DNA of 32,875 nt from Candidatus Woesearchaeota archaeon (GCA_016205905.1 JACQSP010000031.1:1-32875), one strand, 5' to 3'. Positions 2,375 through 29,884 are shown, numbered from the stretch's first letter. Numbers and translations: made by a program. Notes: generated by a model not told the origin, from the sequence alone.

Positions 2375-2378
2375 TAAT

Positions 2379-2409: not shown

Positions 2410-2410
2410 A

Positions 2411-5375: not shown

Positions 5376-5598
5376 CTTTCCACCTTTTTTAAGTGTTATT
5401 TTTTATTAAATATTTAGTTAACATATCTGTTATTATATTAAGTAGTTAACACCGAATTGATAGAAAACTTAAAATTGATATATAAACATTATTAGTTTCT
5501 ATTATATTCAATGAGTTGTATGTAATGATTTATATATAAGAAAATCATTCTTTATTATACGACAGGAATTTATATGATTGGAATTTATATAATTAACA

Positions 5599-6054
5599 AT
5601 GAATAATATGATTAATACCCTATCTGACAAAAAGAATGTAATTGAATTATCAGGATGCGCAATCATAAAAGACAACAAGCTTTTATTACTTTACAGAACA
5701 ACACATAAGCATTATGAGTTCCCTGGCGGCAAAATCCAGCCAAATGAAACCATTGAAAGGGCTGCAATAAGAGAAGCAAAGGAAGAAATAGGATGTGATG
5801 TTGAGCTTGTTAAATATCTTGGCTTTAAGGAATTTACTGCAAATATTAGCACAGCAAATACAGGCTCTCTTAAAGGTATGCGCAATCTTAAAGGCCATGT
5901 ATTTCTCGCGAATATAACCAAAGGTGAGCCATGTGTTAATGAACCAGAATCATTTGAAAACGTAACTTGGATGCCGTTAAGTGAACATAAACAATATAAT
6001 CTTGCTGAGAATGTGAAGATGTTTATTGATGAGATTGTGAAGTTAAAGAGATAG
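5599..6054 (+). CDS. NUDIX hydrolase
   Basis: Canonical Nudix box GGKIQPNETIERAAIREAKEEIGCDV (GX5EX7REUXEEXGU). GGAATTTATAT TATA-like box about 25-30 nt upstream of the ATG suggests a leaderless transcript. Confidence 0.85.
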   Translation: MNNMINTLSDKKNVIELSGCAIIKDNKLLLLYRTTHKHYEFPGGKIQPNETIERAAIREAKEEIGCDVELVKYLGFKEFTANISTANTGSLKGMRNLKGHVFLANITKGEPCVNEPESFENVTWMPLSEHKQYNLAENVKMFIDEIVKLKR

Positions 6055-7851: not shown

Positions 7852-8037
7852 AACACTAAACAAAAATCTCATCTAATTGTTGAGAAATTAATCAAGGAAA
7901 AAAAGAAGATAACAACAGAAAACCTGCTTGAGCTTTATGATACTCAAGGCATTTCTCCTGAGCTTATAAGAGACGAAGCTTTAAAACAAAGCATTAATGT
8001 AAAAGTTCCTGATAATTTTTATGCGAAGATTGCAGAA

Positions 8038-14339: not shown

Positions 14340-15572
14340 ATGAGCAGCATAAACAGGCAGGAATTTGTACCATGGATACGCAAATATCAGCCGACCTCAA
14401 CAAAAGATGTAGTTGGACAGGATACTTCTATTAATGCTATAAGAGATTTTATAAAAAATTTCAAGACCCAAAGAAAAAAAGCAATTCTTATCTATGGCTC
14501 AAGCGGTGTTGGCAAAACAAGTTCTGTATATGCATTGGCAAATGAGTTAAATTTAGAAATTATTGAAGTGAATGCAAGTGATTTCAGGAATGCACAGCTG
14601 ATAAATCAGACAATCGGCCAAGCATCGAAACAAATGAGTTTGTTCATGAAACAAAAGGTTATTCTTGTTGACGAGGTTGATGGATTGTCTGGAACACAGG
14701 ACAGAGGCGGTATTCAGGCGATAATAAGTATAATAGAAAGTACTTCATTTCCAATAATATGCACAGCAACTAATCCTTATGACCAGAAATTAAGTTCTTT
14801 GAGGAACAAATGCGAGGTTGTTGAATTCAGCTCATTAAATTATCTTACTGTTTACGAAAAGCTCAGTGATATCTGCAAAAAAGAAGGCATTAAATTTCAG
14901 GAGCATGATCTTAAGTCCCTTGCCAGAAGAGGAGATGGAGATTTAAGGGCTGCAATTAATGACCTTCAAGGCCTTGTGCAAAATAAGAAAGAACTGGAAA
15001 GAGCAGATCTTGAGCAATTAAGCGAACGAGATAAAAAAGAGAGTATAATAGATGCGCTTGTAAGAATATTTAAGATAAAAGATCCAAAAATAGCGTCAAT
15101 GGCATTTAACAATGTTGAAGAAGAAACAGACCAGTTATTTTTATGGGTTGACGAAAACCTGCCAAAAGAATATACTAAGCCAGATGACCTTGTAAGAGCA
15201 TATAATATGTTAAGCAGAGCAGATGTTTTCAGGGGTCGAATATCAAGATGGCAGCATTGGAGATTTTTAGTGTACATTAATGATCTGCTGACAGCAGGAA
15301 TTGCAGTATCAAAGGACGAGAAAAATAAAGAATTTGTAAGTTATTGCCAGACACAAAGGCTGTTAAAAATATGGAGAGCCAACATGAAATACCAGCAGAG
15401 AAAAGCTATTGCTGAGAAGATTGCTGCAAAAACACACACTTCTGTAAAGGATACTATAAAAAGTACATTTCCTTATGTTCAGTTCATGATGAAGAAAAGC
15501 AAAGGACACAGAAAGCAGATTACAGAGTTCTTTGAGCTTGATAAAGAAGAAGCTGAGTGGATGATTGGGTAG
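14340..15572 (+). CDS. rfcL: Replication factor C large subunit
   Basis: PWIRKYQPTSTKDVVGQ, Walker A YGSSGVGKTSS, Walker B ILVDEVDG, and a sensor region ICTATNPY; archaeal clamp-loader architecture. Confidence 0.85.
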   Translation: MSSINRQEFVPWIRKYQPTSTKDVVGQDTSINAIRDFIKNFKTQRKKAILIYGSSGVGKTSSVYALANELNLEIIEVNASDFRNAQLINQTIGQASKQMSLFMKQKVILVDEVDGLSGTQDRGGIQAIISIIESTSFPIICTATNPYDQKLSSLRNKCEVVEFSSLNYLTVYEKLSDICKKEGIKFQEHDLKSLARRGDGDLRAAINDLQGLVQNKKELERADLEQLSERDKKESIIDALVRIFKIKDPKIASMAFNNVEEETDQLFLWVDENLPKEYTKPDDLVRAYNMLSRADVFRGRISRWQHWRFLVYINDLLTAGIAVSKDEKNKEFVSYCQTQRLLKIWRANMKYQQRKAIAEKIAAKTHTSVKDTIKSTFPYVQFMMKKSKGHRKQITEFFELDKEEAEWMIG

Positions 15573-15721
15573 AATGTTTCACACTTTTTCTTATGAAAGA
15601 TTATAGTAATTAACATTTCTTGGTTTTTTTGTAAAGTAGTTTACAAAAGGTTAATATTCTTGGTATGCTTAATAAGATTATAATGTTCAATTATCTTAAT
15701 TAAAATTAGAAAGGTGAAAAC

Positions 15722-16051
15722 ATGAGTGGAACAGAACTAGAAGATGGTTATTTTGGAGTTAGTGAAAGACGAGAAGGTAGACCATTAGTAGGAGAATTTA
15801 ATTATGACAGCGCTCCAGAACGTGGTGGAGAAGTTCCAACACAAGATTTAGTAGAGGTAGGTATTCTTCTTCATATCCAAAGAAGCGTTACACGAGAATA
15901 CACTCACAGAATGTATATAGCCGTAGATTTGTTAAATCAAGGAAAAATTGCACTTTCACAATTAAATTTGAGAACAGGTGAAGTAGATATGTTAGAGCAA
16001 AGAGTAACTGATAATTATTATTTGAATAATGTTGTCAGAAGCAGAGAATAG
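15722..16051 (+). CDS. Hypothetical protein (109 aa), paralog of the N-terminal module of 19444..20523
   Basis: AAGGTGA SD 6 nt upstream of ATG. Shares EDGYFG, ERGGEVPTQDL, VTREYxHRM and VDLLN blocks with the 359-aa protein. Confidence 0.6.
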   Translation: MSGTELEDGYFGVSERREGRPLVGEFNYDSAPERGGEVPTQDLVEVGILLHIQRSVTREYTHRMYIAVDLLNQGKIALSQLNLRTGEVDMLEQRVTDNYYLNNVVRSRE

Positions 16052-16112
16052 GTAATATTGATTCATAATAATTTTTAGAGTGTATTACTTAGAAAAGGCT
16101 GAATGTTGTAAT

Positions 16113-16134
16113 CTTCAAATTGCAGATTGTTGGC
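16113..16134. repeat. Left copy of an imperfect inverted repeat bracketing the 16.1-20.6 kb block
   Basis: CTTCAAATTGCAGATTGTTGGC, followed by AGGTTTTTT. Partner at 20529-20555. Confidence 0.45.
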
Positions 16135-16286
16135 AGGTTTTTTATTTGTGTTCTTTATTATATTAAGACGTTTGTTGAAGATTCTCTGTGATGATTTGAG
16201 ATTTGGTGGAACACAACTAAAATGATAATACTCTTCATAACTAAAACTATAAGAGGTTTGTGGTCTGCTATACTATAAAATCGTGT

Positions 16287-16763
16287 TTATTCATAAGAGC
16301 GACCGACTACAGCCCATAGGTTTACTCGTGGTTGAACACACTTTTCTTGTAGTTGAACCCACTCTTCAAAGTCACCTGTTGTTAATTCTGATTTTTTTAT
16401 TTTATATGTTCTTAACCCATTAAAAGCACAATCTGGACCAGCTATTGTCCATCTTATCCTGCCTTTTACTCTAACAACAAAATTAATATCATCTTCTATT
16501 ATATCTTCAATTTCCAAATATCCAGCTGATTTTACAATCTCTTTATAATTCAACCCCTTCTCGTACCAGAAAAAATATGCAAAATCCATACCTGGCATTA
16601 ATCTATCAAGACTTAATGCTGTTCTTGTACTTCTTACTATTGCACATATATCTTTTCTGTGTGATGGAAACACAGGCTCATATGTTGTACCATAACCATA
16701 CCTTGGAGAAGGATTTAATCTTTCAACCAAATATCTTATTTCATCGACTTTCATTTCATTCAT
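16287..16763 (-). CDS. Hypothetical protein (158 aa), last gene of the DapF-like operon
   Basis: ATG at 16763-16761 preceded by GGAGG (10-nt spacer); the ORF-track start at 16772 is GTG. No family recognised. Confidence 0.6.
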   Translation of the reverse strand: MNEMKVDEIRYLVERLNPSPRYGYGTTYEPVFPSHRKDICAIVRSTRTALSLDRLMPGMDFAYFFWYEKGLNYKEIVKSAGYLEIEDIIEDDINFVVRVKGRIRWTIAGPDCAFNGLRTYKIKKSELTTGDFEEWVQLQEKCVQPRVNLWAVVGRSYE

Positions 16764-16807
16764 TTTAATCACGCCTCCAATAAGCTATATATGCGTTTGC
16801 TATATTC

Positions 16808-16846
16808 GTGGACTTTAACTAAATAAATTCAGATATTAAAGTCCAC
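16808..16846. repeat. Intercistronic hairpin GTGGACTTTAA-N17-TTAAAGTCCAC
   Basis: 11-bp perfect stem. Homologous to hairpin 2702-2740 (GCGGACTTTAA/TTAAAGTCCGC). Its GTCCACCG tail matches the core of the 3'-end repeat family. Confidence 0.55.
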
Positions 16847-16861
16847 CGCAATAATGTTCGA

Positions 16862-17902
16862 TTATTTTGCAATTTTAGTATATATCTCTTTCGCCTTATT
16901 AATAATATCTTCTCTATTTGTCACATCAATATTCATAATTAGCAAATTTAACGACGCTGTTAACTCTGGCCTAGCTGCACTAATCCTTAATTTATACAAA
17001 TGCTGCTCGTCTTGAGTATCAATTTTAGCTTTTGTTATGTTTTCTAAATAAAATGCACTTGCCAAACAATATGCGCTATTTGCAACTCTTATTGCATGCT
17101 GCTGCTCTTCTGAAAATTGTGAAAATGGTTTTGAATATTCAATAGGATTAAAATTTTTATCAGGATTTAATCCGTACATAAAATCAATTATTATAACTTC
17201 TTTTCCATAATGCTGCGACAAGGAAACTTCAAGTGATGGCTGTATTTGCTTAAAATATCGGCCATTTCCATATAAGAATAGATAATCCTCATCATAGCCG
17301 GTAAATAGAATTACATTACGATTATTGCTTATTACTTTGCGATTATTATTTAGATGTTCTTTTGCTGTATAAGTTATATGTTTCATTTTTTCATAATAGA
17401 CTATCAACTCAGCTATTGTACATTTTAATCTGCCTTGTTCACGAATATCAGTTACCATGCCATCTACAATTATCAAATCGCGAGAGGGGAATCTTTTATC
17501 ATCGTCTATTTTTCTAAGCAAATCTAAATCAAGTGTGTTTAAGAAAGACACCCATTCTCTTATTGAGTCATTATATTTTTCTTCATGTCTCGGCTGTTTT
17601 ATAGCTGCCTCATCAATCAGCCATAAATCTGTATGAGCCAAACCAGCAAATCTTTCAAAATCGTTATACATTTCAGGGAGCATACTTTCGAAATTAAGCG
17701 GTTTTGCGTCGATAACAGGTGCAACCATTGAAACCGGATATTTTTCCCTTAACATTGCATAAAGATGAAGTACAGGTGTATGCCTTTTGAAAGTTCTGCT
17801 TGGCCATGGATTAGAATTCTGGATAGTAATTGGAGCTCCATCCATTAAAATAGTTACATTTTCTATAATATTATTTATTGTGTTGCCAGCCATAAGAATC
17901 AT
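16862..17902 (-). CDS. Hypothetical protein (346 aa), translationally coupled to the DapF-like gene
   Basis: The ATG (17902-17900) lies 3 nt after the upstream TGA (17908-17906), with GTGAGG just upstream. No family recognised. Confidence 0.65.
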   Translation of the reverse strand: MILMAGNTINNIIENVTILMDGAPITIQNSNPWPSRTFKRHTPVLHLYAMLREKYPVSMVAPVIDAKPLNFESMLPEMYNDFERFAGLAHTDLWLIDEAAIKQPRHEEKYNDSIREWVSFLNTLDLDLLRKIDDDKRFPSRDLIIVDGMVTDIREQGRLKCTIAELIVYYEKMKHITYTAKEHLNNNRKVISNNRNVILFTGYDEDYLFLYGNGRYFKQIQPSLEVSLSQHYGKEVIIIDFMYGLNPDKNFNPIEYSKPFSQFSEEQQHAIRVANSAYCLASAFYLENITKAKIDTQDEQHLYKLRISAARPELTASLNLLIMNIDVTNREDIINKAKEIYTKIAK

Positions 17903-17905
17903 GCC

Positions 17906-19042
17906 TCACTTTCTCAACAGATTAACTTGATAATTTGCACTGCCTATTTTCTTCGCAGAACCTATCATAGAAATATTGTTCTTTGAGAATTTGAGGTAAA
18001 TGTCTCCACCATCATTAATTACTCTAATTTCATTGTTGTCATGATTATTGTGATTAGGGTTATTGTTATTATGATTATTGTTATCCTGATTAGTGTGGTC
18101 ATGGTTATTATTATCATTGGTTGGATTACAATAGTGATTACAAGAAGAATTTAACATCCACATCAATGTTGCGCACGATGTTGAGCCTGTGCCGCAGCAT
18201 AATGTTGTCGCCCACAAACCGCGCTCTAAAGTTCTGATTCTGATATTTCTGTCGTCGATAATTTGCATTGCATTCAAATTAATGCCAAATGGAAATATAT
18301 CTCTATTTTGGATAAAAGCTAAAAATCCCGTTAAATCAACATTATTTACATCGTCAACAATCAGCACGCCATGCGGCTCACCAGAGTTTAATAAATATAT
18401 CGAACAATTTTTATAAGCGAAGACTGCACAAAAAGTGGTTAGCAGATTAAATACTGCTTTTTGTAAATTAACATATTTTAAAGGATCTTGTGGAAAACCC
18501 ATATCGACCGTTACAGTGTCGCCTATTACTTCTGTTAAAAATATACCGCTGTTTGTTTCGATGTTTATTTTTTGATTTGGAATGTTTGTTTTTTGTTTAG
18601 AAGCTTTTGTTTTGGGTTTTGAAACAGTTATTTTATTATATAAATTGCCTATTTCAGAACTTAGACAAAATTCATGTTCAAGATATTTTGCAATACACCT
18701 TAATCCATTACCGCACATATCTGACTCTGAACCATCTTTTTCAAATATCCGCATTTTTATATCTGCAACATTTGAAGGTTGGAGAAAAAGTAAACCATCT
18801 ATCCTTTTATTCTGTATTTGGCTTGAGTTGCATACTTCTCTGCTTAACTTACTTCTTGTTTCATCATTGGATATATTATGAATTCTTTCGTCTATTATTG
18901 CAAAAACATTGCCGTTTCCTTCAAAGATTTCAAAAGAAACTTGAGGTACAAGCGTATGATAATTATTATTAAGAAAATTAAGATTATCTGTGTTATTATT
19001 TATATCGACGACATTTCCGACAATCATCCATGCATGTTCCAA
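17906..19042 (-). CDS. DapF-fold (diaminopimelate epimerase-like) two-cysteine PLP-independent epimerase/racemase with N/H-rich insertion
   Basis: FEGNGNVFAIIDE (GNDF-like), FEKDGSESDMCGNGLRC and TLCCGTGSTSCA (the two catalytic-Cys motifs), and SGEPHGV. The track start is TTG at 19042; an alternative ATG is at 19027. Confidence 0.7.
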   Translation of the reverse strand: MEHAWMIVGNVVDINNNTDNLNFLNNNYHTLVPQVSFEIFEGNGNVFAIIDERIHNISNDETRSKLSREVCNSSQIQNKRIDGLLFLQPSNVADIKMRIFEKDGSESDMCGNGLRCIAKYLEHEFCLSSEIGNLYNKITVSKPKTKASKQKTNIPNQKINIETNSGIFLTEVIGDTVTVDMGFPQDPLKYVNLQKAVFNLLTTFCAVFAYKNCSIYLLNSGEPHGVLIVDDVNNVDLTGFLAFIQNRDIFPFGINLNAMQIIDDRNIRIRTLERGLWATTLCCGTGSTSCATLMWMLNSSCNHYCNPTNDNNNHDHTNQDNNNHNNNNPNHNNHDNNEIRVINDGGDIYLKFSKNNISMIGSAKKIGSANYQVNLLRK

Positions 19043-19189
19043 TTTCTGCCCTTAAGTTAAGATATGTTCTTGTGTTCATTATTATCACCAGTTCATTATA
19101 TCACCTAAATTTATACATGAAGATATTATATTAGGATAAACTATTTTAGATTAATGTAAACTATACAACAAAAAGATACTTATTTGTTA

Positions 19190-19308
19190 TTGCAGATTAA
19201 ATGTAAAATATTCTATATTATGCCCTATTTAATCTGCAAGATTGTAAATTTATAGGTACAGACATTAATAATTGTAAAAATCGGTAATCGTGCCTATAAA
19301 TTTACAAT
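19190..19308. promoter_or_regulatory. Two adjacent long perfect or near-perfect hairpins in the divergent promoter region
   Basis: TTGCAGATTAAAT/ATTTAATCTGCAA (19190-19202/19227-19239; 13 bp). ATTGTAAATTTATAGGTAC/GTGCCTATAAATTTACAAT (19241-19259/19290-19308; 18 of 19 bp). Confidence 0.5.
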
Positions 19309-19443
19309 AAATAAAATGAAAATTAAAATACTGCTTTCAGAAAAGTTACAAAAAGTATAATTATAAACTTTTTTTTAAAAATGTGTATATTAGTTTACGT
19401 CAAGCTTATCTATGAAAACTGCTATCTTCTCATTGTGATAAAT

Positions 19444-20523
19444 ATGACAGCACTTCAAGCACAAGAACAAAGAAAGGAAACAAAAAGACAGGAACCAGAA
19501 GACGGATATTTTGGAAGAGATAGTGATGGCACTTATTGTTATGAATCTGCTCATGAGCGTGGTGGAGAAGTTCCTACACAAGACTTAATAGAGATGAATG
19601 AGATAATTCATATAACACGCAATGTCACCAGAGAATATTCTCATAGAATGGGTTGTATTGTTGATTTATTAAATAATAAAAAGATAGAATTGGAACAAGT
19701 AGATCAAGAAAGCGGTTTGATAGAATTTGTGAGTGGACAATTGCTTTATGATAGGCTTTGTGATGGAGATTCATTAGATAAAATTTTTTCTTGTTTGGAT
19801 ATTACGAAAATACCACATGCAGATGAAATTATGGAAGCCACGATGATAATGGAAGAGAAATGCTATGATGAATTGATTAAACACAAAAATCTTCACGGCT
19901 CATACTTAACAGCGGATTTCCCATTATATGTTTTTGAAAATGGGGAAGCCATACTTTATCTTGCAAAAAGAGAGAATAATCCTATGTTTTATAGTGCGGA
20001 TAATTTAAGAGATGCATTATATCAATTATTGAGAACACATAATTATAAACCAAAAAAAGAAGATGTTGAAAGAGTGATTAATACAGACAGCACATTAAAA
20101 ATTCCACTGTCAAAGCTTAATTTAGAAAATCGTGGTGGGTTATTTAGGTGGAGTGATGATGAAATTGTGTTTTGCTATTTCAAAATAGATGTAGCACACA
20201 TTGAGCAACTTAACCCAACTCAAAGAGCACTTGCAGAAAGGGTTTATGGAAAAGGAGAGAATTTTGACAGAATAACTCATAATCTTAAGGAAATGATTGA
20301 CAAAAAAAATGCAGAACGGAGAATAACAGACCAAATTGGAACAAAACAAATTAGTCTTGCAGTTCTAACACCAGAATATGTAGAACATAGATGGATTAAC
20401 TATGGAAAAAGAGCAATAAGCCGCCCTTCTATTTTGGGCAATTATAGAGATGAATCTTCATTTGATGTTAGAAAATGGACTCTTGATGATCATTATCTAC
20501 TATTACATACAATTATAAAATAA
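19444..20523 (+). CDS. Hypothetical protein (359 aa) with an N-terminal module paralogous to 15722..16051
   Basis: MTALQAQEQRKETKRQEPEDGYFG...HERGGEVPTQDLIE...VTREYSHRM...VDLLN. The C-terminal ~270 aa are unrecognised. The track start at 19381 adds 21 hydrophobic AT-rich codons, judged unlikely. Confidence 0.65.
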   Translation: MTALQAQEQRKETKRQEPEDGYFGRDSDGTYCYESAHERGGEVPTQDLIEMNEIIHITRNVTREYSHRMGCIVDLLNNKKIELEQVDQESGLIEFVSGQLLYDRLCDGDSLDKIFSCLDITKIPHADEIMEATMIMEEKCYDELIKHKNLHGSYLTADFPLYVFENGEAILYLAKRENNPMFYSADNLRDALYQLLRTHNYKPKKEDVERVINTDSTLKIPLSKLNLENRGGLFRWSDDEIVFCYFKIDVAHIEQLNPTQRALAERVYGKGENFDRITHNLKEMIDKKNAERRITDQIGTKQISLAVLTPEYVEHRWINYGKRAISRPSILGNYRDESSFDVRKWTLDDHYLLLHTIIK

Positions 20524-20528
20524 AAAAA

Positions 20529-20555
20529 GCCAACAATAAATACTGCAATCTGAAG
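20529..20555. repeat. Right copy of the imperfect inverted repeat
   Basis: The reverse complement reads CTTCAGATTGCAGTATTTATTGTTGGC. 21 of 22 aligned positions are identical to 16113-16134, with one 5-nt indel. Confidence 0.45.
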
Positions 20556-20657
20556 GCCACAGCATTCGCTTTTTCAAATAAAAAAATCTGCCTTTTTTAA
20601 GTAATATTGCCTTTAATCAACTAACAATATATTAACATAATGTTAACTATTTAACAT

Positions 20658-20670
20658 AAAATATATAAAC
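20658..20670 (+). promoter_or_regulatory. TATA-box candidate for the ACT-domain gene
   Basis: AAATATATAAAC about 30 nt upstream of the ATG at 20695. Confidence 0.35.
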
Positions 20671-20694
20671 TGTTAACAATTAGATCATGTTAAT

Positions 20695-21354
20695 ATGGTA
20701 ACAATCGCAAGAACAGTTGAAAAAATCGTTGAAAGAAAGCCATTTCTTCAGGAAGCATTAGTCAGAGGAGTAATTAATGTAGCTGCATTAGCAGAGGAGA
20801 TTTTGCCAGAAGTAGAAACAGAAATGAAAGAAAAAGTTAAATTTGGAGCAGTGATGATGGCGATAAGGCGGTTGAGTGAGAAATTAAACAAATCATTCAT
20901 AAAAACTGCAAAGTTTGACATAAGTTCAGATATTAGTGTTAAATCTGATTTATATGAGATTACATTAAGAAAACTTCCAAGTATACAGGCAAAAATTAGC
21001 AAATTATATGATAAAATAAATTCAGAGAATGATTTTCTTACTGTAACCCAAGGCATTAATGAAATAACCTTGATAACAAACAGAAGGAACAAGACAAAAA
21101 TAAGGTTATTATTTGATTCAAAGGAAATTAAGTCAGAAGTAGAGGATATTGCCAGCGTCACAATAAATATTCCTGTAGAAGCAATACAGACTATTGGCCT
21201 GTTTTATATAGCCACAAGAGCATTAAACTGGGAGAATATAAATATAATAGAAATTGTTTCAACATTTACAGAGCTGACATTTATTATAAAAGAAGAAGAT
21301 GCGCCAAGAGCATTTGCAACATTAAAACAGTTAATAAGAGAACAAAGCAAGTGA
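20695..21354 (+). CDS. ACT-domain protein (ACT_7-like, archaeal family)
   Basis: N-terminus IVERKPFLQEALVRGVINVAALAEEILPEVE and C-terminus GLFYIATRALNWENINIIEIVSTFTELTFIIKEEDAPRAF are typical of small archaeal ACT-domain proteins. Confidence 0.55.
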   Translation: MVTIARTVEKIVERKPFLQEALVRGVINVAALAEEILPEVETEMKEKVKFGAVMMAIRRLSEKLNKSFIKTAKFDISSDISVKSDLYEITLRKLPSIQAKISKLYDKINSENDFLTVTQGINEITLITNRRNKTKIRLLFDSKEIKSEVEDIASVTINIPVEAIQTIGLFYIATRALNWENINIIEIVSTFTELTFIIKEEDAPRAFATLKQLIREQSK

Positions 21355-21419
21355 TAATCTGTCTTAGAAAACATACTTCTTCTTATACTTCTTCTACAAG
21401 AGATTAAAACAACAAAAAA

Positions 21420-21430
21420 TTATATAAATA
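21420..21430 (+). promoter_or_regulatory. TATA-box candidate for glyS with a purine-rich BRE-like tract
   Basis: AAAAAA then TTATATAAATA, about 35 nt upstream of the ATG at 21461. Confidence 0.4.
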
Positions 21431-21460
21431 GGACTAAACTAACCAAAAGAATAATTAAAA

Positions 21461-23008
21461 ATGGCTGAAAAATCAATAATATCAATCGAAGAAATGTCAA
21501 CCTTTTGCAAAAGAAAAGGATTTGTTTATTCTAATAGTGAGATTTATGGCGGAATGTCTGGTTTTTTTGATTATGGTCCTTTGGGCGTTGAAGTAAAAAA
21601 CAATATTAAACAGGATTGGTGGAAAACATTTGTAAAGAGCAGAGACGATGTTGTTGGTATTGATGGTACAATTATTTCACACCAAAAAGTTTGGCAGGCT
21701 TCTGGCCACGTCAGTTGTTTTGCTGATTTAATGGTTGAATGCACAAAATGCAGGGCAAGGAAGAGAGCAGACCAGCTGATAGAAGATGAGTTAAGTATTG
21801 CAGCAGAAGGGCTTTCTAAAGAAGATATCAATAAACTAATCGAGCAGAATAATCTTAAATGCCCTTTTTGCAAAGGCAGCCTGAGCAAGCCAAAGGAATT
21901 TAATCTAATGTTCAAAACCTTTGTTGGTCCTGTTGAATCTGAAGAAGCTGTTGCATATTTAAGGCCTGAAACAGCACAGCAGATGTTTACAAATTTCAAG
22001 ATTATTGCAGAAACTTCAAGAGTGCAGCTGCCGTTTGGGATTGCACAGATAGGCAGAGCTTTCAGGAATGAAATTTCTCCAAGAGATTTTCTGTTCAGAT
22101 GTCGAGAATTTGAGCAGATGGAATTAGAATATTTTACACATCCCGACGAGAAAAAGTGCAGTTTATTGGCAAAGGATGATCTAAATTATGAATTTCAGAT
22201 TTTAACAGCAGAAACACAGGAAAAGAAAAGCTCACATGAAAAGAATCAAAAAAAGGATCTGCATGAAAAAGTCCATATTCAAAAATTAAAAATAAAAGAT
22301 ATCTTAAAAATGCAGTTAATGGAAGAATGGCATGCTTATTGGCTGAAACAGCAGTACCAATGGTTTGTTGATTTAGGAATAAAAAAAGAAAACTTAAGAT
22401 TAAGGGAGCATAGAAAAGACGAGCTTGCGCATTACAGCTCAGCATGTTTTGATATTGAATACAATTTTCCGTTCGGCTGGAAAGAAATTCATGGCATGGC
22501 AAACAGAGGCAGCTTTGACCTAGAACAGCATCAGAAACATTCGAAAAAAAGTTTTGAACTCTTTGACGAGGCAACAAAGAAAAAAGTATTGCCAAAAATA
22601 ATTGAGCCTTCTCAGGGTGTAGACAGAGCTTTTCTGGCATTCATGTTTGACGCATATCATCATGAACCAGATAATAAAGAAAGAGATTGGATTGTGTTAA
22701 AACTGCATAAAAAACTTGCGCCAACACAAATCGCAGTATTGCCGCTAGTAAACAAACTTGAAGACAAGGCAAAGGAAGTTTACAATATGCTTAAAAATGA
22801 ATTTGTTTGCTTCTATGACAGGTCAGGAGCAATAGGAAGAAGATATGCAAGAGCAGACGAGATAGGAATTCCATTATGCCTAACAATTGATTTTGAAACC
22901 ATTGAAAAAGATAATTGTGTAACAATAAGAGACAGAGATACAACGAAACAAGTAAGAGTAAAGATTACTGATTTAAAAGAAAAGCTGAGAGAAAAGTTCT
23001 GCGGATAA
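21461..23008 (+). CDS. glyS: Glycine--tRNA ligase (archaeal/eukaryotic alpha2 type)
   Basis: FCKRKGFVYSNSEIYGGMSGFFDYGPLGVEVKNNIKQDWW, YLRPETAQQMF, GRAFRNEISPR, FEQMELEYF and EPSQGVDRAF. Confidence 0.9.
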   Translation: MAEKSIISIEEMSTFCKRKGFVYSNSEIYGGMSGFFDYGPLGVEVKNNIKQDWWKTFVKSRDDVVGIDGTIISHQKVWQASGHVSCFADLMVECTKCRARKRADQLIEDELSIAAEGLSKEDINKLIEQNNLKCPFCKGSLSKPKEFNLMFKTFVGPVESEEAVAYLRPETAQQMFTNFKIIAETSRVQLPFGIAQIGRAFRNEISPRDFLFRCREFEQMELEYFTHPDEKKCSLLAKDDLNYEFQILTAETQEKKSSHEKNQKKDLHEKVHIQKLKIKDILKMQLMEEWHAYWLKQQYQWFVDLGIKKENLRLREHRKDELAHYSSACFDIEYNFPFGWKEIHGMANRGSFDLEQHQKHSKKSFELFDEATKKKVLPKIIEPSQGVDRAFLAFMFDAYHHEPDNKERDWIVLKLHKKLAPTQIAVLPLVNKLEDKAKEVYNMLKNEFVCFYDRSGAIGRRYARADEIGIPLCLTIDFETIEKDNCVTIRDRDTTKQVRVKITDLKEKLREKFCG

Positions 23009-23050
23009 ATTGTTTCGATGAATAGAATTATTTTATTTGTTTCATTCATG

Positions 23051-23217
23051 GCATGTCCAACAGGTTCACGAATAAAAGTAAAAGGTAAGAAGTATAAGGT
23101 AAGAGGTAGGATGATAACATCGTAGTCATTCCCTCTTACCTTATACCTCTAACTTCTTACCTTTTTATTCATGTGACGGTGGACTTCGTCCCACACACGG
23201 ATTGGGAGCGGTAAAAA
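23051..23217 (-). repeat. Gene-3'-end composite structured element, copy 2 (central rod is a GGTAAGAGG-type palindrome)
   Basis: Minus-strand reading: TTTTTACCGCTCCCAA (23217-23202), then CGTGTGTGGGACGAAGTCCACCGTCACATGAA (23199-23168), then rod 23162-23078 containing GATGATAACATCGTA, then CGTGAACCTGTTGGACATGC (23070-23051). Confidence 0.6.
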
Positions 23218-23269
23218 GATTGAGAGAAACAGAATCTCCGCTAAACAAGTATGAATTATTAAACCAAAA

Positions 23270-26200
23270 CTATCCAGGACCACTACCTCCGCCGCCTGAA
23301 GATGATGCTGGTTTTTCCATCGGAGCAGTAGATTCGCTCTTACACATATTAGTTTGGTCATTAGTATCTGCACAAGCATCACCTATATAATTCCCTTCAG
23401 CATCGCAGAATTCTCGACAAGTTTTGCCTTCTTCACAAGTTATTATATCATATTCAGGATAAATTTTTTCACCTTCTGGTGTTAAAGCCATACAATATAA
23501 CTCCCCTACTTTAGAATCCCATTTACAATGATCAAATTCGGACTCAGTATCGCCAAATTCAGAAGTGAAAGTTACTTTACCTGGTACGTTTGGATCCTTA
23601 CCATCATCAGTATCTTCACATTTCATTTCAGTAACTGGCTGTTGGCATATATCTTTCCAATCATTGCATTTCATTCCATAATCATTGCAGTCAATTAATT
23701 TTCCTGCAAGTTCATTTCCTTCACAATAAGTTTCGTAAAGCATAGTGTTAACAATATCATAATTTCCTTTATCACAATTATCTCCACTCATATCTTCAAA
23801 CCCAAATTCATTTGTGTAAATATTCTTGCCCTCTATGAATGGATCATCCGGCGCAGATTCAATCGGATCATTAGTGCAACTTTTTAATGACTCATCTTTT
23901 ACTAAACACTTTCCATTATAACAAACCTTGCCTTGCTCTTTGCAATTGATGACGTCATAAGCAAGATTATTTTCATCGCATTTGTAATTAAGGAGAATGT
24001 CTGTTTCTTGAGGAGTATATCCTACATTAGGAATATCTTCTATATCCTCTTCTTCAATACAATTATTTGAGAAATAATCTGTGTAACCAAACTCATTTGT
24101 ATATATCATCACCTGCCATTCCTCGCCTTCATTTTGGATTTCGCAGGATTTAAGGCTTTCATCAGGCATGACACATTTTCCGTTATAACATTTCATATCA
24201 TAATCAGCGCAGTTAATCAACACTTCCTGTTGTGTATTTCCATCACAATAAGATTCTGATAATAGTTCTTCATTTTCACAATAATCATTGTAACCATCTT
24301 CTTCACCAAAACCATTAGTGTATAAAGTTATGCCCTTTACAAAGGGATTTTTATTATCTTCTTCAGGCTGAGTTTCTTGCGATTCTTGCTGCGGTTCTGA
24401 TTGTGTTTGATTTGTGGTTTCACCAGCTGTTTCAGTAGTTTCTATAGCAACAGCAACCTCAACCTTAGGCACTGCAATATCTTCGCATTTAACTAAGCTA
24501 GTATCCTCAACCAAACATTCTCCTTTATAGCATTTCTTTCCTTCTACAGTGCAGTCAGTTATGCTGTAAGCAGGCTCATTTCCATTGCAATAAAATTGTG
24601 CCAGATAATTGCTTTCTTTTTCCCAGTTAAATGCCTCAATACTTGACACTTCATTAGTTTCACTGCATTCAAATTCAGCATCCTGTTCTTCGTCGCCAAA
24701 TTCATTAGTGTAATGAATAACATTCTCACCTTTTTTTTCAAACATATCGCATGACTTCAAACTTTCATCAACAACCACGCATCTACCATCATAGCAAGCC
24801 ATACCTTCTGAAGAGCAGTCGTAAGGCTCTGTCATCTTAAGCTCATCTCCATTGCAATAAAATTCTACTAATAGATTTGAATTTTCATTTTTTGAGTCTT
24901 TAATACAAAAATCATCATTATAATCTTCCAAGTTATATGCATTGACAGAATGAGTAACGCCATATTCATAAAAATTTAATCCATTATCTCCGCCATCTTC
25001 ACACACCATTAAGCTAGGATCAGGATAAGTGCACACACCATTTGCGCACATAGCTGCGCCATTTTCATTTTGATATTGGGTGCAGTCTGTAGTGCTTGCT
25101 TCGGGATAATTATTTTTTCCTGCTGAAAATTGTTGAACCTCATAATTTTTCCAGAGGCAATCATCATTATACTCTTCAGTTTCTCCGTTTAATTTAATAA
25201 ATAATCCAGTGCCATATACAAAAGGGTCATTATCTGGATCAGAATCCTCAAACTCATTTGTTTTGTCTGTTTTAACGCATTTTCCGTCTTTGCAGACTGC
25301 ATTTTCATAGAAACAACTTAACACATCGGATTCAGCTAATTCATCATTTTTGCAATAGTATTCTAATAAATATTCTTCATTTTTACATACATCTTTTAGT
25401 TTCATTTTTTCGCCGTCAATAGATGTGTAATCAACCTCACCATAAGTAAATATGCTTTTCATGCCTTCTTTATCCTGACAATTAAGATAATTGTTTTCAA
25501 TCAGCACGCATTTTCCATCCTTGCATTTAGCATCTAATAACGTGCAATCAATAACTTTTTCTCCCTGCGGATATACATAAAGGCCATTATCTAACTTATA
25601 AATTGGTGAAATACAGTATTGTTCATAAAGATAAACTTGATTATCAAAATCGCCGTACTTGTTGCACTGGTCTTTGTCATTATAAGCCTGGCTGGTATAA
25701 ATCCAGTTAATATCTCCGCTTTTCCAATAATTTTTTCCGTCATCTGTATCAAAACACCATGTGTTACAAATATTTTCTTCAGAGAAATCATTAGGCGTGT
25801 AATAATAATTGTCACCGAAATAAACTGTTTGGGATTTTTCATTGTTGTCCTCACCGCCTGCTCCAACTGCATCTTCTTCAGTACTATCTGAGGTTTCCTC
25901 AATATCATTCCCCGTATCTAGCACTATTGACACTTCATGGCTTTCTCCTAAAGTGCCAAATTTAAGGATGTTTGTTTTTGTAGGGTTTTTGACGAGGACA
26001 CATTCTCCCATATTAATTGGCTGCTCCTCTGCATCATAAGTAAATACAGACTTCTCGCTGTTCGCATATACAGCTATCTTGAAATTATCCTTTACATCTG
26101 CGTTTCCTTGATTGCATATTTCAAACTCAAAAAAGTTAACGCATGCCTCGCTTACAACATTTTCATTTATCTTGCCAATTACTAAATCAGGCAATAATGG

Positions 26201-27049
26201 CTCGTTTTTGCATTCTTTGTCACATCCATCACCATTAAGATTATTCCCATCATCGCATTCTTCTCCAATAAGATTTACTAAACCATCACCGCAGATTTTT
26301 AGAATACAAGCGCCTTTTATGCAAACATAATCTTCATCGCCAAAAATCTCTCTGCAGTCGAGCATTTGCGCAGGCTGCATTTGCGCAGGCAGTCCTGTTT
26401 TGCTGTCGCAATACGCTTCGTAAATATAAGGCATTCCATCTTTTTTGCATGTATCATATTCGACAACACATTCTTCTTTTATTTCATCATATTCTCCTGC
26501 ATACATATCTATCCAGTATCCAAAAGCACCAGAAGCTATTTTTAAGTCATCACCTGTTGGGTCAATACATGATTTCGCAAAAAGGTTTTGTTCAGTTATT
26601 TTAGAATATGCCTCATCTTTTGCTAATGAACAATACATTTCCTTTTCCTTTTGAATTTTTATTTTATTTATCCGATTTATTTTATCCTTAATTCTACTAT
26701 TGGTAGATTCTCTTGTTACCTTTTCTTTTATTCTGGTCGACATTGCGGTTTGTGTTTCTATAGCTTTTTTTCCGCCCTGACTCATTTGGTTAATCATCTT
26801 TATGACCATATCAGCAATGGAAGGAGTATTTTCTTCGTCTCTTTTAGAGTCTTGCTCATACTTCTGAGCATTTGATGCCATCATTATTACTTTTCTCGCC
26901 ATTCCAGCGAGGTTTGAGTTATTAGATATAATGTTGGATATAAGGATAAAGAGGGAGGATAAAACTAGCAAAATTATTAAAATAATTACAATGGTTAATA
27001 CGAGATTATGTCTTCTTTTTATGTAACTCATAACATTCTTTTTTTTCAT
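23270..27049 (-). CDS. Giant secreted/surface cysteine-rich modular protein (1259 aa)
   Basis: AAGGTGA SD. N-terminal signal-anchor LVLTIVIILIILLVLSSLFILI. CGDGLVNLIGEECDDGNNLNGDGCDKEC (Myxococcus-type Cys-rich repeat/DUF4215-like). A CARDB-like beta domain (PDLVIGKINE...FEFEICNQGN). About nine Cys-rich modules ending C-x-(D/N)G-x-C-(V/L). Confidence 0.85.
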   Translation of the reverse strand: MKKKNVMSYIKRRHNLVLTIVIILIILLVLSSLFILISNIISNNSNLAGMARKVIMMASNAQKYEQDSKRDEENTPSIADMVIKMINQMSQGGKKAIETQTAMSTRIKEKVTRESTNSRIKDKINRINKIKIQKEKEMYCSLAKDEAYSKITEQNLFAKSCIDPTGDDLKIASGAFGYWIDMYAGEYDEIKEECVVEYDTCKKDGMPYIYEAYCDSKTGLPAQMQPAQMLDCREIFGDEDYVCIKGACILKICGDGLVNLIGEECDDGNNLNGDGCDKECKNEPLLPDLVIGKINENVVSEACVNFFEFEICNQGNADVKDNFKIAVYANSEKSVFTYDAEEQPINMGECVLVKNPTKTNILKFGTLGESHEVSIVLDTGNDIEETSDSTEEDAVGAGGEDNNEKSQTVYFGDNYYYTPNDFSEENICNTWCFDTDDGKNYWKSGDINWIYTSQAYNDKDQCNKYGDFDNQVYLYEQYCISPIYKLDNGLYVYPQGEKVIDCTLLDAKCKDGKCVLIENNYLNCQDKEGMKSIFTYGEVDYTSIDGEKMKLKDVCKNEEYLLEYYCKNDELAESDVLSCFYENAVCKDGKCVKTDKTNEFEDSDPDNDPFVYGTGLFIKLNGETEEYNDDCLWKNYEVQQFSAGKNNYPEASTTDCTQYQNENGAAMCANGVCTYPDPSLMVCEDGGDNGLNFYEYGVTHSVNAYNLEDYNDDFCIKDSKNENSNLLVEFYCNGDELKMTEPYDCSSEGMACYDGRCVVVDESLKSCDMFEKKGENVIHYTNEFGDEEQDAEFECSETNEVSSIEAFNWEKESNYLAQFYCNGNEPAYSITDCTVEGKKCYKGECLVEDTSLVKCEDIAVPKVEVAVAIETTETAGETTNQTQSEPQQESQETQPEEDNKNPFVKGITLYTNGFGEEDGYNDYCENEELLSESYCDGNTQQEVLINCADYDMKCYNGKCVMPDESLKSCEIQNEGEEWQVMIYTNEFGYTDYFSNNCIEEEDIEDIPNVGYTPQETDILLNYKCDENNLAYDVINCKEQGKVCYNGKCLVKDESLKSCTNDPIESAPDDPFIEGKNIYTNEFGFEDMSGDNCDKGNYDIVNTMLYETYCEGNELAGKLIDCNDYGMKCNDWKDICQQPVTEMKCEDTDDGKDPNVPGKVTFTSEFGDTESEFDHCKWDSKVGELYCMALTPEGEKIYPEYDIITCEEGKTCREFCDAEGNYIGDACADTNDQTNMCKSESTAPMEKPASSSGGGGSGPG
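23345..25768 (-). repeat. In-frame tandem array of ~60-75-aa cysteine-rich modules within the 1259-aa gene
   Basis: Recurring pattern ...YTNEFG...D.C...L.E.YC.GNE(L/P)A...DC...G.(K/V)CY.G.C(V/L)..DESLKSC, in 9-10 copies. Interrupted by a T/E/Q-rich linker at 24350-24475. Confidence 0.6.
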
Positions 27050-27086
27050 TCATTCACCTTAAATTTATAGTCCGCCTCCTAATAAT

Positions 27087-29591
27087 CTAAGTTTTACTGG
27101 TTGATAATTCTAACTCCTCAATCTTAATACATTCACCATCTTGACAAACCTTACCTTCTGCACATTCATTAATAATATATGCTAAATTATTTTCGTTGCA
27201 GGATATTTCTGCAATGTACTTATTCATGTAAGCAGAGTCAAACACTTCTTTGCTTTCACTGCATTCAAATTCATTGTACCACATATCATCACCAAATTCA
27301 TTAACATAATTAATGGTTGTTTCACCATTTTCTTCATCATCAATTACTTCACAAAACTTCTGGCTTTCATCAACATTTACACATTTTCCATAATGGCAAA
27401 CCATGCTTTCCTGTGAGCAGTCATAAGGCTCAGTCATCTTAAGCTCATTGCCATTACAATAAAATTCTACCAACAAGTTGGTGTTTTGTTCTACATTATC
27501 GCTTTCACTTGTATCTTCAACACAATAATCATAAGCATAATCTTTCATACCATATTCATTTACAGAATCAATATCCCCTAAATTATAATAATCTAATCCA
27601 TTATCACCTTCTTCTTCACAGCTCTTTAAAGAAGGGTTCGGATATGTACACACAGCATTTGCGCAAAGAGCAACACCAAATTCATTTGTGTATTGTGTAC
27701 AATCAATCTCTGTAGAATAAAGGTTATTATTTTGGTCAAGAGAATATTCAATTAATTTGTAATAATTCCATGAACAGAAATCTTCGCTGCCGGCAACAAA
27801 AGGATCATTCTCTGTATCTTCAGTCTTTGAGCCGTCTTTATTGTCAGGTTGCTCATCAGGTGGTTCAGATAATTCTACACATTTCCCATTTATACAAACA
27901 CCTTTTTCTGAGAAACAATCATATTCTTTAACATTAACAAGCTCATCATCTTTACAATAATATTCTTTTACATATTGATAGTCAATACATTCATCCTTTA
28001 ATAGCATCTTTTTTCCGTCAATAGAAGTATAATCCACTTCGCCATAAGTAAATGCATCCTGCCCTCCTTCCAAATCTTTACAGTTAAGATTATTTTCTTC
28101 AATAGGCACGCATTTACCATCTTCGCATTTCGCATCCATTACTGTACAGTCAACTTTTTTCTCGCCGTGAGGATAAACATAAAGGCCACTGTCTAATTGG
28201 AATATTGGTGAAATACAATACTGCTCCCAAAGAAAGACTTTATTATCAAAATTTCCTGTTTCGCAAGTATCTTCCATATTATTACTCATTCCAATATACA
28301 GCCAGTTTGCTGTTCCCTTATTCCAGTAATCTTTTCCATTATCAGTATCAAAACACCAGTTATCACAAATATTTTCTTCTGAAACGTCATTTGGTTTAGA
28401 ATAATAATTATCTCCAAAATAAATCTCTTGAGATTTTATATTATTATCCTCGTCTATCTCAGCAATATTATTGTCAACATCAATACTAAATATTACTTCA
28501 TATGTATCTCCAAGCTGGCCAAACTGCTGTATACTCATTTTTTGGGGATTTTTTACATTGACACATTCTCCTGCCTCAATCGTCTGTTCTTTGGAATTGT
28601 AAGAAAATGTTGAGCTTTTCCCATTCGCTTCAACATTAATGTTGAAATCTTTTGTTACAGTATCTTCTCCATAATTGCATATTTCAAACACAAAAGAATT
28701 AATGCAATTCTCGCTTAAGGCAATCTCATTTATCTTTCCTATGACTAAATCAACATTTGAAGATTCAACCTCAACCACAACTTCTGTTTTGCATTCTTCA
28801 TCGCAACCATCACCTGCAATGTTATTTCCGTCGTCGCATTCCTCTTCAACACCATCTATTACATTAACCAAACCATCGCCGCATTTCTTCATGACACAGG
28901 CGCCTTTAATGCATACATAATTTTCATCGCCAAACATATCCCTGCAATCTATCAAATTAGGTGAAAGTGTTGGCAGTTCTGTAACACTGTCGCAGTATGC
29001 TTCATAAAGATAAGGCAATCCTTCTTCTTTGCAGGTATCATACTCAACAAGGCATTCTTCTTTTTGCGGCTTGTCATAAGTATTAATCCAGTATCCAAAA
29101 GCACCAGAAGCAACCTTTAAATTATTATTTAATGGATTCACGCATACTTTTGAGAAAAGATTGTTTGTACTTATTTTTTTAGAAGCCTCTTCTTTCAATA
29201 CTGCACATATCTGCTCTTTTATTTCTTGTTTCTTTTTTTTCTCCTTTTCTTTATTTGACTTTTCTAATAGCTCGTTACGATTAAATTTGTCTAAAGCTCT
29301 TCTTTTTTCTTTGTCAGCTTCAAATGTGTTTTTATTGTAATTAGAAATACCTGTTTGTTTATCATTAATAAAAGTATTTGACTTTGTATATTTTTTTTCA
29401 GAATCTGTTGCTTTATGTTGACTGTTGTATGAAGAATAAGCAGGCAACATTTTTCTTGCAAAACCAGTAAGGTCTATTTTATTCTCTAAAACAAAAGAAC
29501 TGATTACAGCGCCGAATAATACGATTACAACAAAAGCTATGAAAATTAAATCTCTTCTTTTAAATCGTATTTTAGCAGGATATTTCATCAA
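27087..29591 (-). CDS. Giant secreted/surface cysteine-rich modular protein (834 aa), paralog of the 1259-aa protein
   Basis: Signal-anchor LIFIAFVVIVLFGAVISSFVL. The same ASGAFGYWI...YDTCK...YEAYCDS...CGDGLVN...EECDDGNN..GDGCDEEC block, CARDB-like domain, and 5 Cys-rich modules. Block NLLVEFYCNG(D/N)ELKMTEPYDCS is identical in both paralogs. Confidence 0.85.
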   Translation of the reverse strand: MMKYPAKIRFKRRDLIFIAFVVIVLFGAVISSFVLENKIDLTGFARKMLPAYSSYNSQHKATDSEKKYTKSNTFINDKQTGISNYNKNTFEADKEKRRALDKFNRNELLEKSNKEKEKKKKQEIKEQICAVLKEEASKKISTNNLFSKVCVNPLNNNLKVASGAFGYWINTYDKPQKEECLVEYDTCKEEGLPYLYEAYCDSVTELPTLSPNLIDCRDMFGDENYVCIKGACVMKKCGDGLVNVIDGVEEECDDGNNIAGDGCDEECKTEVVVEVESSNVDLVIGKINEIALSENCINSFVFEICNYGEDTVTKDFNINVEANGKSSTFSYNSKEQTIEAGECVNVKNPQKMSIQQFGQLGDTYEVIFSIDVDNNIAEIDEDNNIKSQEIYFGDNYYSKPNDVSEENICDNWCFDTDNGKDYWNKGTANWLYIGMSNNMEDTCETGNFDNKVFLWEQYCISPIFQLDSGLYVYPHGEKKVDCTVMDAKCEDGKCVPIEENNLNCKDLEGGQDAFTYGEVDYTSIDGKKMLLKDECIDYQYVKEYYCKDDELVNVKEYDCFSEKGVCINGKCVELSEPPDEQPDNKDGSKTEDTENDPFVAGSEDFCSWNYYKLIEYSLDQNNNLYSTEIDCTQYTNEFGVALCANAVCTYPNPSLKSCEEEGDNGLDYYNLGDIDSVNEYGMKDYAYDYCVEDTSESDNVEQNTNLLVEFYCNGNELKMTEPYDCSQESMVCHYGKCVNVDESQKFCEVIDDEENGETTINYVNEFGDDMWYNEFECSESKEVFDSAYMNKYIAEISCNENNLAYIINECAEGKVCQDGECIKIEELELSTSKT

Positions 29592-29689
29592 AACCCTCTT
29601 TTTTAAGCAAATATATAATTATTAGAAATGGATATATATATGTATTACTATTTTTAAAGAATTTTCAAAGAAATCAGTTTATAATAGAA

Positions 29690-29884
29690 TCAGCTTACAA
29701 ACACAAAATACAATATTGTTAAAGAACCCCACATCTTAAACCTTAAGCCCCAGTCACCAAAGAATAACACCGCAAGCATAGATATTATGAAAACTAATGT
29801 AAGCCCCATATTGTTATGTTTAGAACACTCTTCTTTGCAAACTCTTTCATAAACCATGCCCATTGCAGGATATAAATTAGTCAT
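29690..29884 (-). CDS. Small membrane protein (64 aa) upstream of the giant-protein genes
   Basis: Strong SD GGGGAGGT 7-8 nt upstream of ATG. One or two predicted TM segments (LTLVFIISMLAVLFFGDWGL, WGSLTILYFVFV). Confidence 0.55.
   Translation of the reverse strand: MTNLYPAMGMVYERVCKEECSKHNNMGLTLVFIISMLAVLFFGDWGLRFKMWGSLTILYFVFVS

Follow-up and report, generated by a model that had tools for sequence, protein, structure and literature searches.

Archaea of the DPANN group combine very small genomes with what is believed to be a life attached to other cells, by means that are largely unexplained, and most of their large surface proteins carry no annotation beyond hypothetical. The proteins that carry the DUF4215/TIGR02232 'Myxococcus cysteine-rich repeat' are extracellular and display acidic repeats rich in cysteine (Cys). 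In the cultured DPANN archaeon 'Candidatus Mancarchaeum acidiphilum' Mia14, strain-specific surface-layer proteins with fused CARDB domains have been proposed to act in cell-cell contact (PMC5498576). In populations of Nanoarchaeota the hypothetical cell-surface proteins are the most variable class and show an elevated density of non-synonymous single-nucleotide polymorphisms (PMC6142677). Here we describe a locus from a tiny, groundwater-type and presumably symbiotic Candidatus Woesearchaeota archaeon (GCA_016205905.1, JACQSP010000031.1:1-32875; this whole 32,875-nucleotide stretch is called the window below), in which two giant paralogous genes, A and B, encode chains dominated by a repeated module with six Cys. 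The novelty lies less in A and B themselves, which are already present in public databases as hypothetical proteins, than in this unnamed module, which is widespread in DPANN archaea, and in the Woesearchaeota architecture that sets it behind a CARDB/DUF4215 head.

Gene A (23270..27049, minus strand), the long paralog, starts with ATG and encodes 1259 amino acids (aa). Gene B (27087..29591, minus strand), the short paralog, encodes 834 aa from a TTG, or 833 aa from an ATG one codon downstream that has AGAGGG ahead of it, consistent with the 833-aa database gene call P0005. With a 64-aa gene upstream of B, gene C (29690..29884, minus strand), they form the three minus-strand open reading frames (ORFs) of the original prediction, whose sizes and positions were confirmed. 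A and B are paralogs with 48% identity across ~880 aligned positions (E=0). The order of parts in A is a transmembrane (TM) anchor, a stalk, a degenerate module (M0), a DUF4215 repeat, a CARDB domain, modules M1-M9 and a Gly/Ser-rich tail; B has the same parts as far as the CARDB domain, followed by M1-M5 and a short tail. Judged from sequence, this supports an assignment of A and B to the extracellular adhesin-like modular proteins. We lean, with modest confidence, towards a reading of both as membrane-tethered cell-surface proteins that form a fibril for attachment to a host cell, a surface or a matrix component.

The module train was delineated with a hidden Markov model (HMM) of 12 window modules, M0 and M3 being left out; its matches amount to 10 copies in A and 5 in B. 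In A, all on the minus strand, M1 (25502-25780), M2 (25271-25501), M3 (25025-25270), M4 (24773-25024) and M5 (24509-24772) span residues 424-847 (24509..25780) with E-values of 1e-21 to 4e-28, save for the degenerate M3, which has four Cys and E=7e-4. They are followed by M6 (24167-24508), M7 (23900-24166), M8 (23639-23899) and M9 (23336-23638), which span residues 848-1238 (23336..24508; E=7e-17 to 1e-23) and are absent from B. The five modules of B (27123-28379, minus strand) were assigned by the HMM together with collinearity, its degenerate M3 being recognized solely by collinearity with M3 of A; M6-M7 of A align to M4-M5 of B at 34% identity. The counts of five and about nine modules given by the original prediction hold for M1-M5 and M1-M9, and each total rises by one, to 6 in B and 10 in A, when M0 is included. 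Its module length of 60-75 aa proved too short, the measured range being 72-114 aa, with a family median of 84. The periodic six-Cys pattern is real, Cys making up 5.3-5.6% of A and B. All six Cys are kept in M1, M2 and M4-M8 of the window, counting for M6 residue C855, which lies ahead of an acidic T/Q/E-rich insertion (24374-24484); this apparent linker of A is an insertion within M6, after its first Cys. The extended M9 has extra Cys.

The view that the repeated module fits no named domain is borne out in Pfam-A, NCBIfam and the PDB. Neither Pfam-A 2025 nor NCBIfam 20.0 gave a match to the module in A, in B, in single modules at E<=10 or in canonical copies from other carriers, and over the module regions Pfam gave no match at E<0.03 and none near a cut-off. 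The relaxed Pfam matches to single modules (PITM1-3, E=0.18; DUF7559, 0.25; DUF2095, 0.06; DHFR_2, 0.03; TSP_1, 1.5), and DUF7107 (E=0.75), the best match to the module region in the scan of whole B, were rejected as chance, because they lie far under the cut-offs and are not repeated across modules. Among PDB sequences the best hmmsearch E-values were 0.13 with the profile of the window family (alignment A2), to a polygalacturonase, and 0.93 with that of the canonical repeat (alignment A5), to chains of the viral capsid protein VP3, both of which we regard as chance matches. A recent survey of archaeal 'dark' domains mentions small Cys-rich putative metal-binding domains, and the passages searched hold nothing identifiable as this module (PMC13607799). 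An AlphaFold2 model of M4 (A residues 676-759), made with 54 family modules as the alignment, is all-beta and confidently predicted, with a mean pLDDT of 93.1 and a pTM of 0.78. A Foldseek search with it returned no match in the PDB (best E=1.8, TM-score ~0.2) or in BFVD (best E=0.79), a method that is weak for small disulfide-rich domains. On this model, the module is possibly a new fold.

A profile of the window modules alone, searched exhaustively against 1.84 billion cluster representatives, recovered 1,369 proteins at E<=1e-3, of which 341 reach E<=1e-10; single proteins hold as many as 21 module copies. The module thus occurs in at least 1,369 clusters at 50% identity. When the short alignment A2 was used for a homology search based on a word index, nothing was returned, which reflects a limit of that method. 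The canonical repeat has the consensus C-t-D-s-D-g-G-x-D-y-y-x-k-G...D-x-C...L-x-E-Y-Y-C...C...C-x-d-G-a-C, with all six Cys present in 753 of the 779 full-length module instances, each Cys column 98.6-99.7% conserved and the acidic residues D12, D37 and E46 (numbered in alignment A5) invariant. Comparison with hhalign shows the window family to be homologous to the canonical modules (probability 99.3%, E=1.6e-20). All named carriers but one are DPANN archaea, from the Woesearchaeota, Micrarchaeota/Bilamarchaeaceae/Anstonellales, Diapherotrites, Aenigmarchaeota and Nanoarchaeota; by sequence, the module is a widespread DPANN repeat that is not peculiar to A and B. The sole named carrier outside DPANN, P0058 (MBI5728257.1), lies on a contig of 5.5 kb whose bin is assigned to Candidatus Magasanikbacteria, a bacterium of the candidate phyla radiation, and reflects either mis-binning or a transfer or sharing between two ultra-small radiations. 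In other carriers the module keeps company exclusively with domains of extracellular types: Kazal, CARDB, DUF4215, TSP3, FG-GAP, PKD, Big_13 and endostatin-like. Some Micrarchaeota carriers visibly hold many N-x-S/T sites when inspected by eye. A viral origin or sharing of the module is unsupported, the exact back-translated pattern CTDSDGGK[DN]YY having no match in IMG/VR, in line with the BFVD result.

The canonical form, C-x-D-[ST]-D-G-G...D-x-C...L-x-E-Y-Y-C...C...C-x-x-G-x-C in short, is exemplified by P0040 and P0178 of Candidatus Bilamarchaeum dharawalense. Common to it and the window modules are the framework of six Cys and two motifs, D-x-C and L-x-E-x-Y-C. The window modules are longer than the canonical ones (median 84 versus 75 aa), have partly lost the N-terminal D-x-D-G-G motif, and display lineage-specific inserts along with an inter-module P-[DN]-[PE]-S-L motif. 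The canonical carriers are mostly of 300-700 aa and are without the CARDB/DUF4215 head of A and B. These comparisons allow a broader proposal, which we put forward tentatively and hold to be rather doubtful at present: the module may represent a fold absent from solved structures and a signature extracellular building block of DPANN archaea, a disulfide-locked scaffold for attachment to hosts or partners, which A and B would elaborate in a manner specific to the Woesearchaeota, through the CARDB/DUF4215 head at one end and a fast-evolving tip at the distal one.

Six invariant Cys in each module, together with the invariant acidic residues of the canonical repeat, also raise the question of whether the Cys bind metals or Fe-S clusters instead of pairing in disulfides. 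Di-metal ions are bound in the solved structure of the PDB CARDB entry 3idu, and the metagenomes that yielded the relatives of A and B were taken from groundwater and from oxygen-deficient marine water (Saanich Inlet), the bins including RIFCSPHIGHO2_02_FULL_33_21, SI074_bin25 and SI047_bin129. Such habitats are anoxic, which would make extracellular disulfides less obvious. Against this, the spacing of the Cys within the module (about 31, 11-27, 12-13, 7 and 5 residues) is unlike that of CxxC-type sites, and His is almost absent, at 0.3-0.4% of a chain that is 21% Asp and Glu. Moreover, M3 of A has lost the first and third Cys together, as have its counterparts in the two closest orthologs, which represent one lineage with it; this is as expected of a disulfide, and offers a hint of the connectivity. 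The module is also found alongside classic disulfide domains, such as Kazal and DUF4215, and AlphaFold folds it confidently without cofactors. Metal binding or a redox role is hence unlikely, and we give it very little credence.

Both chains begin with a basic N-terminus holding six Lys or Arg in the first 14 residues, followed by a single hydrophobic segment of 21-26 residues. In A (minus strand) the predicted cytoplasmic N-terminus (27005-27049) has no acidic residue among residues 1-14, the TM segment covers residues 16-41 (26927..27004), and a charged stalk covers residues 42-139 (26633..26926). In B (minus strand) the anchor, recognized by hydropathy and as a modelled helix, lies at 29487-29549 and the stalk at 29208-29486. 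Hydropathy gave no second TM-like window in either protein, and the alignment shows the TM segment to be kept in homologs. The stalks carry 20-22 Lys and Arg and 12-13 Asp and Glu within 88-100 residues. The AlphaFold model of full-length B has a helix at residues 12-36, disorder with very low pLDDT at 37-82, helices at 83-101 and 105-138 and beta-rich domains thereafter, and the stalk of A is equivalent to the region of B modelled as disorder followed by long helices. These features match the N-terminal signal-anchor and charged coiled region of the original prediction, and its statement that a recognizable C-terminal anchor is lacking is borne out: neither protein has a hydrophobic C-terminal segment or a PGF motif, and A ends in a Gly/Ser-rich tail (...SSSGGGGSGPG, residues 1239-1259; 23270..23335 with the stop codon, minus strand) that is kept in its relatives P0002, P0003 and P0009.

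By contrast, its description of the giants as secreted finds little support. Sec-cleaved signals have an h-region of about 7-15 aa and a small-x-small cleavage site; here the hydrophobic stretch is of 21-26 residues, the modelled helix is of 25, and no AxA-type site was seen after it in A or B by hydropathy, alignment or model. Because of this length and the missing AxA-type site, A and B are more likely to be tethered to the membrane by an uncleaved signal anchor, and the positive-inside rule would place them in a type II orientation with the chain outside. Straight after the TM segment there is a motif conserved in the family, L-[AT]-G-x-A-R-K (L-A-G-M-A-R-K in A; residues 47-53 of A, 26891-26911, and 41-47 of B, 29451-29471). 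The unrelated module carriers P0044, P0049, P0064, P0066 and P0163 have similar motifs, [IL]-[TS]-G-[KR]-[AVPT], behind their hydrophobic N-termini. We regard the motif as a possible signal for protein processing or sorting in DPANN archaea. In the public annotation, A (P0001, 1204 aa) and an ortholog (P0003, 1218 aa) are called from an internal Met that lies too far downstream, and the TM segment is lost, the missing region being 26885-27049 in the window and 7854-8000 in the locus of the closest relative, L001. The longer ORF of A is backed by conservation, the TM segment being present in other homologs and encoded in the L001 DNA.

Next to the stalk stands the head, put at about 430 aa by the original prediction. 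Its first part, the ASGAFGYWI...YEAYCDS block, which had been taken for a separate element, is the degenerate six-Cys module M0, recognized with domain E-values of 0.002-0.006 by the HMM built without it. In A, M0 covers residues 140-250 (26300..26632, minus strand; ASGAFGYWI...YEAYCDS...CIKGAC), with the HMM match at 158-250 (E=0.006); in B it lies at 28890-29207 (minus strand). The DUF4215 repeat (TIGR02232, 'myxo_disulf_rpt') that had been predicted to follow is found in both proteins, at residues 251-285 of A (26195..26299, minus strand) and at 28776-28889 (minus strand) in B, with scores of 29.6 and 29.4 bits for PF13948 and of 34.3 and 32.8 bits for TIGR02232, above the curated cut-offs of 27 and 20.8 bits. 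The predicted CARDB-like domain is established for B (28380-28775, minus strand), where residues 281-387 score 27.7 bits against the 22.7-bit gathering cut-off of PF07705. The corresponding region of B is modelled with a pLDDT of 76-83 and matches solved CARDB and archaeal surface-protein domains in Foldseek (3idu_B, TM-score 0.69, rmsd 3.7; 2kl6, TM-score 0.65; 2l0d, TM-score 0.75; all with probability 1.00). Pfam reported no CARDB match in A itself at E<=1; the presence there of a CARDB-like beta-sandwich with an acidic insertion (residues 286-423; 25781..26194, minus strand) is inferred from its collinear homology to B and from the precomputed PF07705 assignments on the A-type relatives P0002, P0007 and P0009.

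Protein searches recovered about nine full-length relatives. When 185,579 species genomes were scanned, full-length relatives turned up in four of them, all Woesearchaeota, and two other loci matched in part, at the level of modules. The closest relative is from a Rifle groundwater metagenome-assembled genome (MAG; L001/L002), in which the whole C-B-A block is kept together with the genes for an EamA transporter and adenylosuccinate synthetase (AdSS), and the ortholog of A is 77% identical. In distant relatives there is one long gene, still beside the genes for glycyl-tRNA synthetase (GlyRS) and DUF7523. Compared with the window region 14340-23008, both L003 and the 274-kb contig of P0007 have GlyRS and DUF7523 near the giant gene, and the P0007 contig also has an RFC-like AAA+ gene a few genes further. 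Because GlyRS and DUF7523 stay near the giant gene in distant Woesearchaeota, the locus appears from gene order to be a stable chromosomal position and not an island. The giants themselves diverge far faster than these neighbours: in L003 the giant protein is ~38% identical, versus 76% for the flanking GlyRS and 74% for DUF7523.

Ratios of non-synonymous to synonymous substitution (dN/dS) against L001 are 0.17 (0.167) for A, 0.19 (0.187) for B and 0.21 for the 64-aa gene, with EamA and AdSS at 0.13, and indicate functional genes under purifying selection. The notion that the ORFs are non-functional or mis-called, decaying repeats in a low-GC genome, is effectively refuted by these values, by the long unbroken frames, by the orthologs in several MAGs from different sites and by the invariant Cys framework. 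Constraint is graded along the giants, from a tight head to looser distal modules: dN/dS is 0.05-0.12 in M0, CARDB and M1 and 0.18-0.31 in M6-M9 of A. M0, at 0.05-0.09 (0.05 in A), is the most constrained region of A, and the distal modules reach up to 0.25-0.31. No signal of positive selection was found, dN/dS being below 0.35 everywhere.

Cognate modules of A and B (M1-M5) are 45-64% identical, versus 22-45% for non-cognate pairs, and the A and B clades are sisters in the tree; because of these two observations, B is best read from sequence as a lineage-specific whole-gene duplicate without M6-M9. A second tandem pair of a long and a short gene, P0031 (1150 aa) and P0010 (746 aa), occurs in another groundwater Woesearchaeote (JACRKF010000009.1, NC_groundwater_1848; 375-6018), its two members being mutually closest, with 49% identity in the head. 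By the same kind of comparison, tandem pairs have arisen at least twice, through independent duplications, A/B and P0031/P0010. Such rapid divergence and recurrent duplication would also suit an arms race, in which the module array defends the cell against viruses, proteases or predators, for example by serving as a decoy for receptors or by coating it in the manner of a protease inhibitor, and many Micrarchaeota carriers of the module do begin with a Kazal-type protease-inhibitor domain. However, Pfam finds no Kazal or other inhibitor domain in A or B and no defence genes among the window ORFs scanned, the BFVD fold search and the exact-pattern IMG/VR search yielded no viral homologs of the module, and dN/dS stays uniformly low. 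We regard a defensive role as improbable.

Taken together, these features are compatible with the following arrangement. The basic N-terminus would lie in the cytoplasm, and one uncleaved TM helix would anchor the chain in type II orientation, with the disordered-then-helical charged stalk raising the rest of it off the membrane. The ectodomain would be organized as beads on a string, with a constrained membrane-proximal head (M0, DUF4215, CARDB and M1) followed by the small all-beta modules, in each of which three disulfides probably lock the fold. At the distal end would stand the C-terminal modules, which are under less constraint, contacting something outside the cell, and the four additional distal modules of A would mean that the tandem pair displays two lengths of one scaffold. 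The structural part of this arrangement is well supported. The adhesion and host-contact part draws on analogy and evolutionary behaviour, and its support is weak because the signals are indirect: faster divergence than the neighbours, recurrent tandem duplication and looser distal modules.

The principal competitor is that A and B are structural components of the envelope, an S-layer-like coat or a spacer canopy that protects or shapes the cell and has no specific partner. The N-terminal anchor, stalk and repetitive beta-rich ectodomain would serve such a coat, purifying selection overall and the position beside GlyRS kept in distant relatives are as for a core gene, and the Mia14 CARDB proteins have themselves been described as surface-layer components (PMC5498576). 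Yet the full-length family was found in just four Woesearchaeota genomes among the 185,579 species representatives, its divergence far exceeds that of its neighbours, and copy number and length vary. Nor do A and B show the features of archaeal S-layer glycoproteins: there are two N-x-S/T sequons in A and none in B, versus 11.4 and 8.4 expected from composition, there is no C-terminal anchor, and neither lattice-forming nor PGF-CTERM-type features were seen in the alignment. We consider the envelope reading possible but less likely than attachment, and give it low confidence. Several points nevertheless weigh against attachment as the function: the properties of A and B fit a purely structural envelope protein equally well; the near-absence of sequons is atypical of archaeal surface proteins in general; cleavage after the L-[AT]-G-x-A-R-K motif could undo the anchored topology; selection is purifying overall; and an episymbiotic lifestyle is assumed for this Woesearchaeote.

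The three genes had been predicted to form one operon, which is likely for B and A and questionable for the 64-aa gene. The spacer between B and A is of 37 nucleotides (27050..27086, minus strand) with GGAGG and GGTGA Shine-Dalgarno-like motifs, and the tight pair is kept in L001/L002, making co-transcription of A and B likely on sequence grounds. The 64-aa gene, which encodes a small protein with one hydrophobic segment, has a GGGGAGG Shine-Dalgarno motif and is 80% identical to its counterpart in L001, and is a real gene. Its membership in the A/B unit is doubtful because the 98-nucleotide gap that separates it from B holds a TATA-like TTTAAAAATA box and because it is present only in the closest relative: among related loci it was found in L001/L002, and it is absent beside P0007 and from the others.

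The surrounding genes are archaeal and housekeeping in nature by Pfam: GlyRS, the EamA transporter, AdSS, an RFC-type clamp loader, DUF7523 and a class I aminoacyl-tRNA synthetase. An assignment of the organism to the DPANN archaea is supported, because the window has archaeal markers (the RFC-type clamp loader and DUF7523) and the nearest relatives of its genes are all from Candidatus Woesearchaeota MAGs. The GC content is ~33%, and no tRNA or Rfam features were found within the window. Between the stop codons of A and GlyRS, in the convergent intergenic region 23009-23269, there is a long imperfect hairpin (23074-23164) with 33-nucleotide arms that are 85% complementary, an RNA minimum free energy of -54 kcal/mol and z=-6.05. 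It is made of short GGTAAGA-like repeats. A terminator working in both directions is one possible identity, a small mobile or repeat element another. Elsewhere in the window, an 841-aa ORF (2850-5375, minus strand) has as its sole Pfam match the phosphorylase-superfamily domain PNP_UDP_1, at residues 519-806 in the C-terminal third, with no assignment for the initial ~500 residues.

Naming the module as a domain family would improve the annotation of many DPANN genomes. It is also a small expressible unit for experiments, for example as A 676-759, and the long/short tandem pair together with the gradient of constraint suggests which end to test for partner binding.

Among the systems with which A and B can be compared, the bacterial giant adhesins surfaced as weak array-type Foldseek matches of the full-length B model, namely SiiE (2yn5), an ice-binding adhesin (5irb) and RbmA (4be5). 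They share with A and B a beads-on-a-string logic and an acidic, possibly Ca-dependent character, but are made of Ig-like (BIg) repeats without disulfides, rely on type I secretion and are anchored differently, and a TM-score of ~0.1 denotes generic beta-sandwich arrays and not homology. Complement C3, transglutaminases and fibronectin, matched by the same model, were likewise rejected as homologs (TM-score ~0.1, root-mean-square deviation 15-33 Å), only CARDB giving domain-level matches. With the DUF4215 proteins, A and B have in common one bona fide copy of the repeat each, and the relatives P0007 and P0008 hold two to several; the repeat is nevertheless a minor part of A and B (~35 aa of 834 or 1259), and HMM comparison shows no relation between it and the dominant module. 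Another parallel is with the CARDB surface-layer proteins of Mia14 (PMC5498576), here compared by their published description. Like A and B, these are large, lineage-specific, extracellular multi-domain proteins with CARDB domains to which a small genome devotes an appreciable part of its length, and a role in cell-cell contact has been proposed for both. In the Mia14 proteins, however, CARDB is fused to PKD and beta-propeller (Kelch/YVTN) domains, whereas in A and B it lies within a train of six-Cys modules, in the company of DUF4215 and behind an N-terminal TM anchor.

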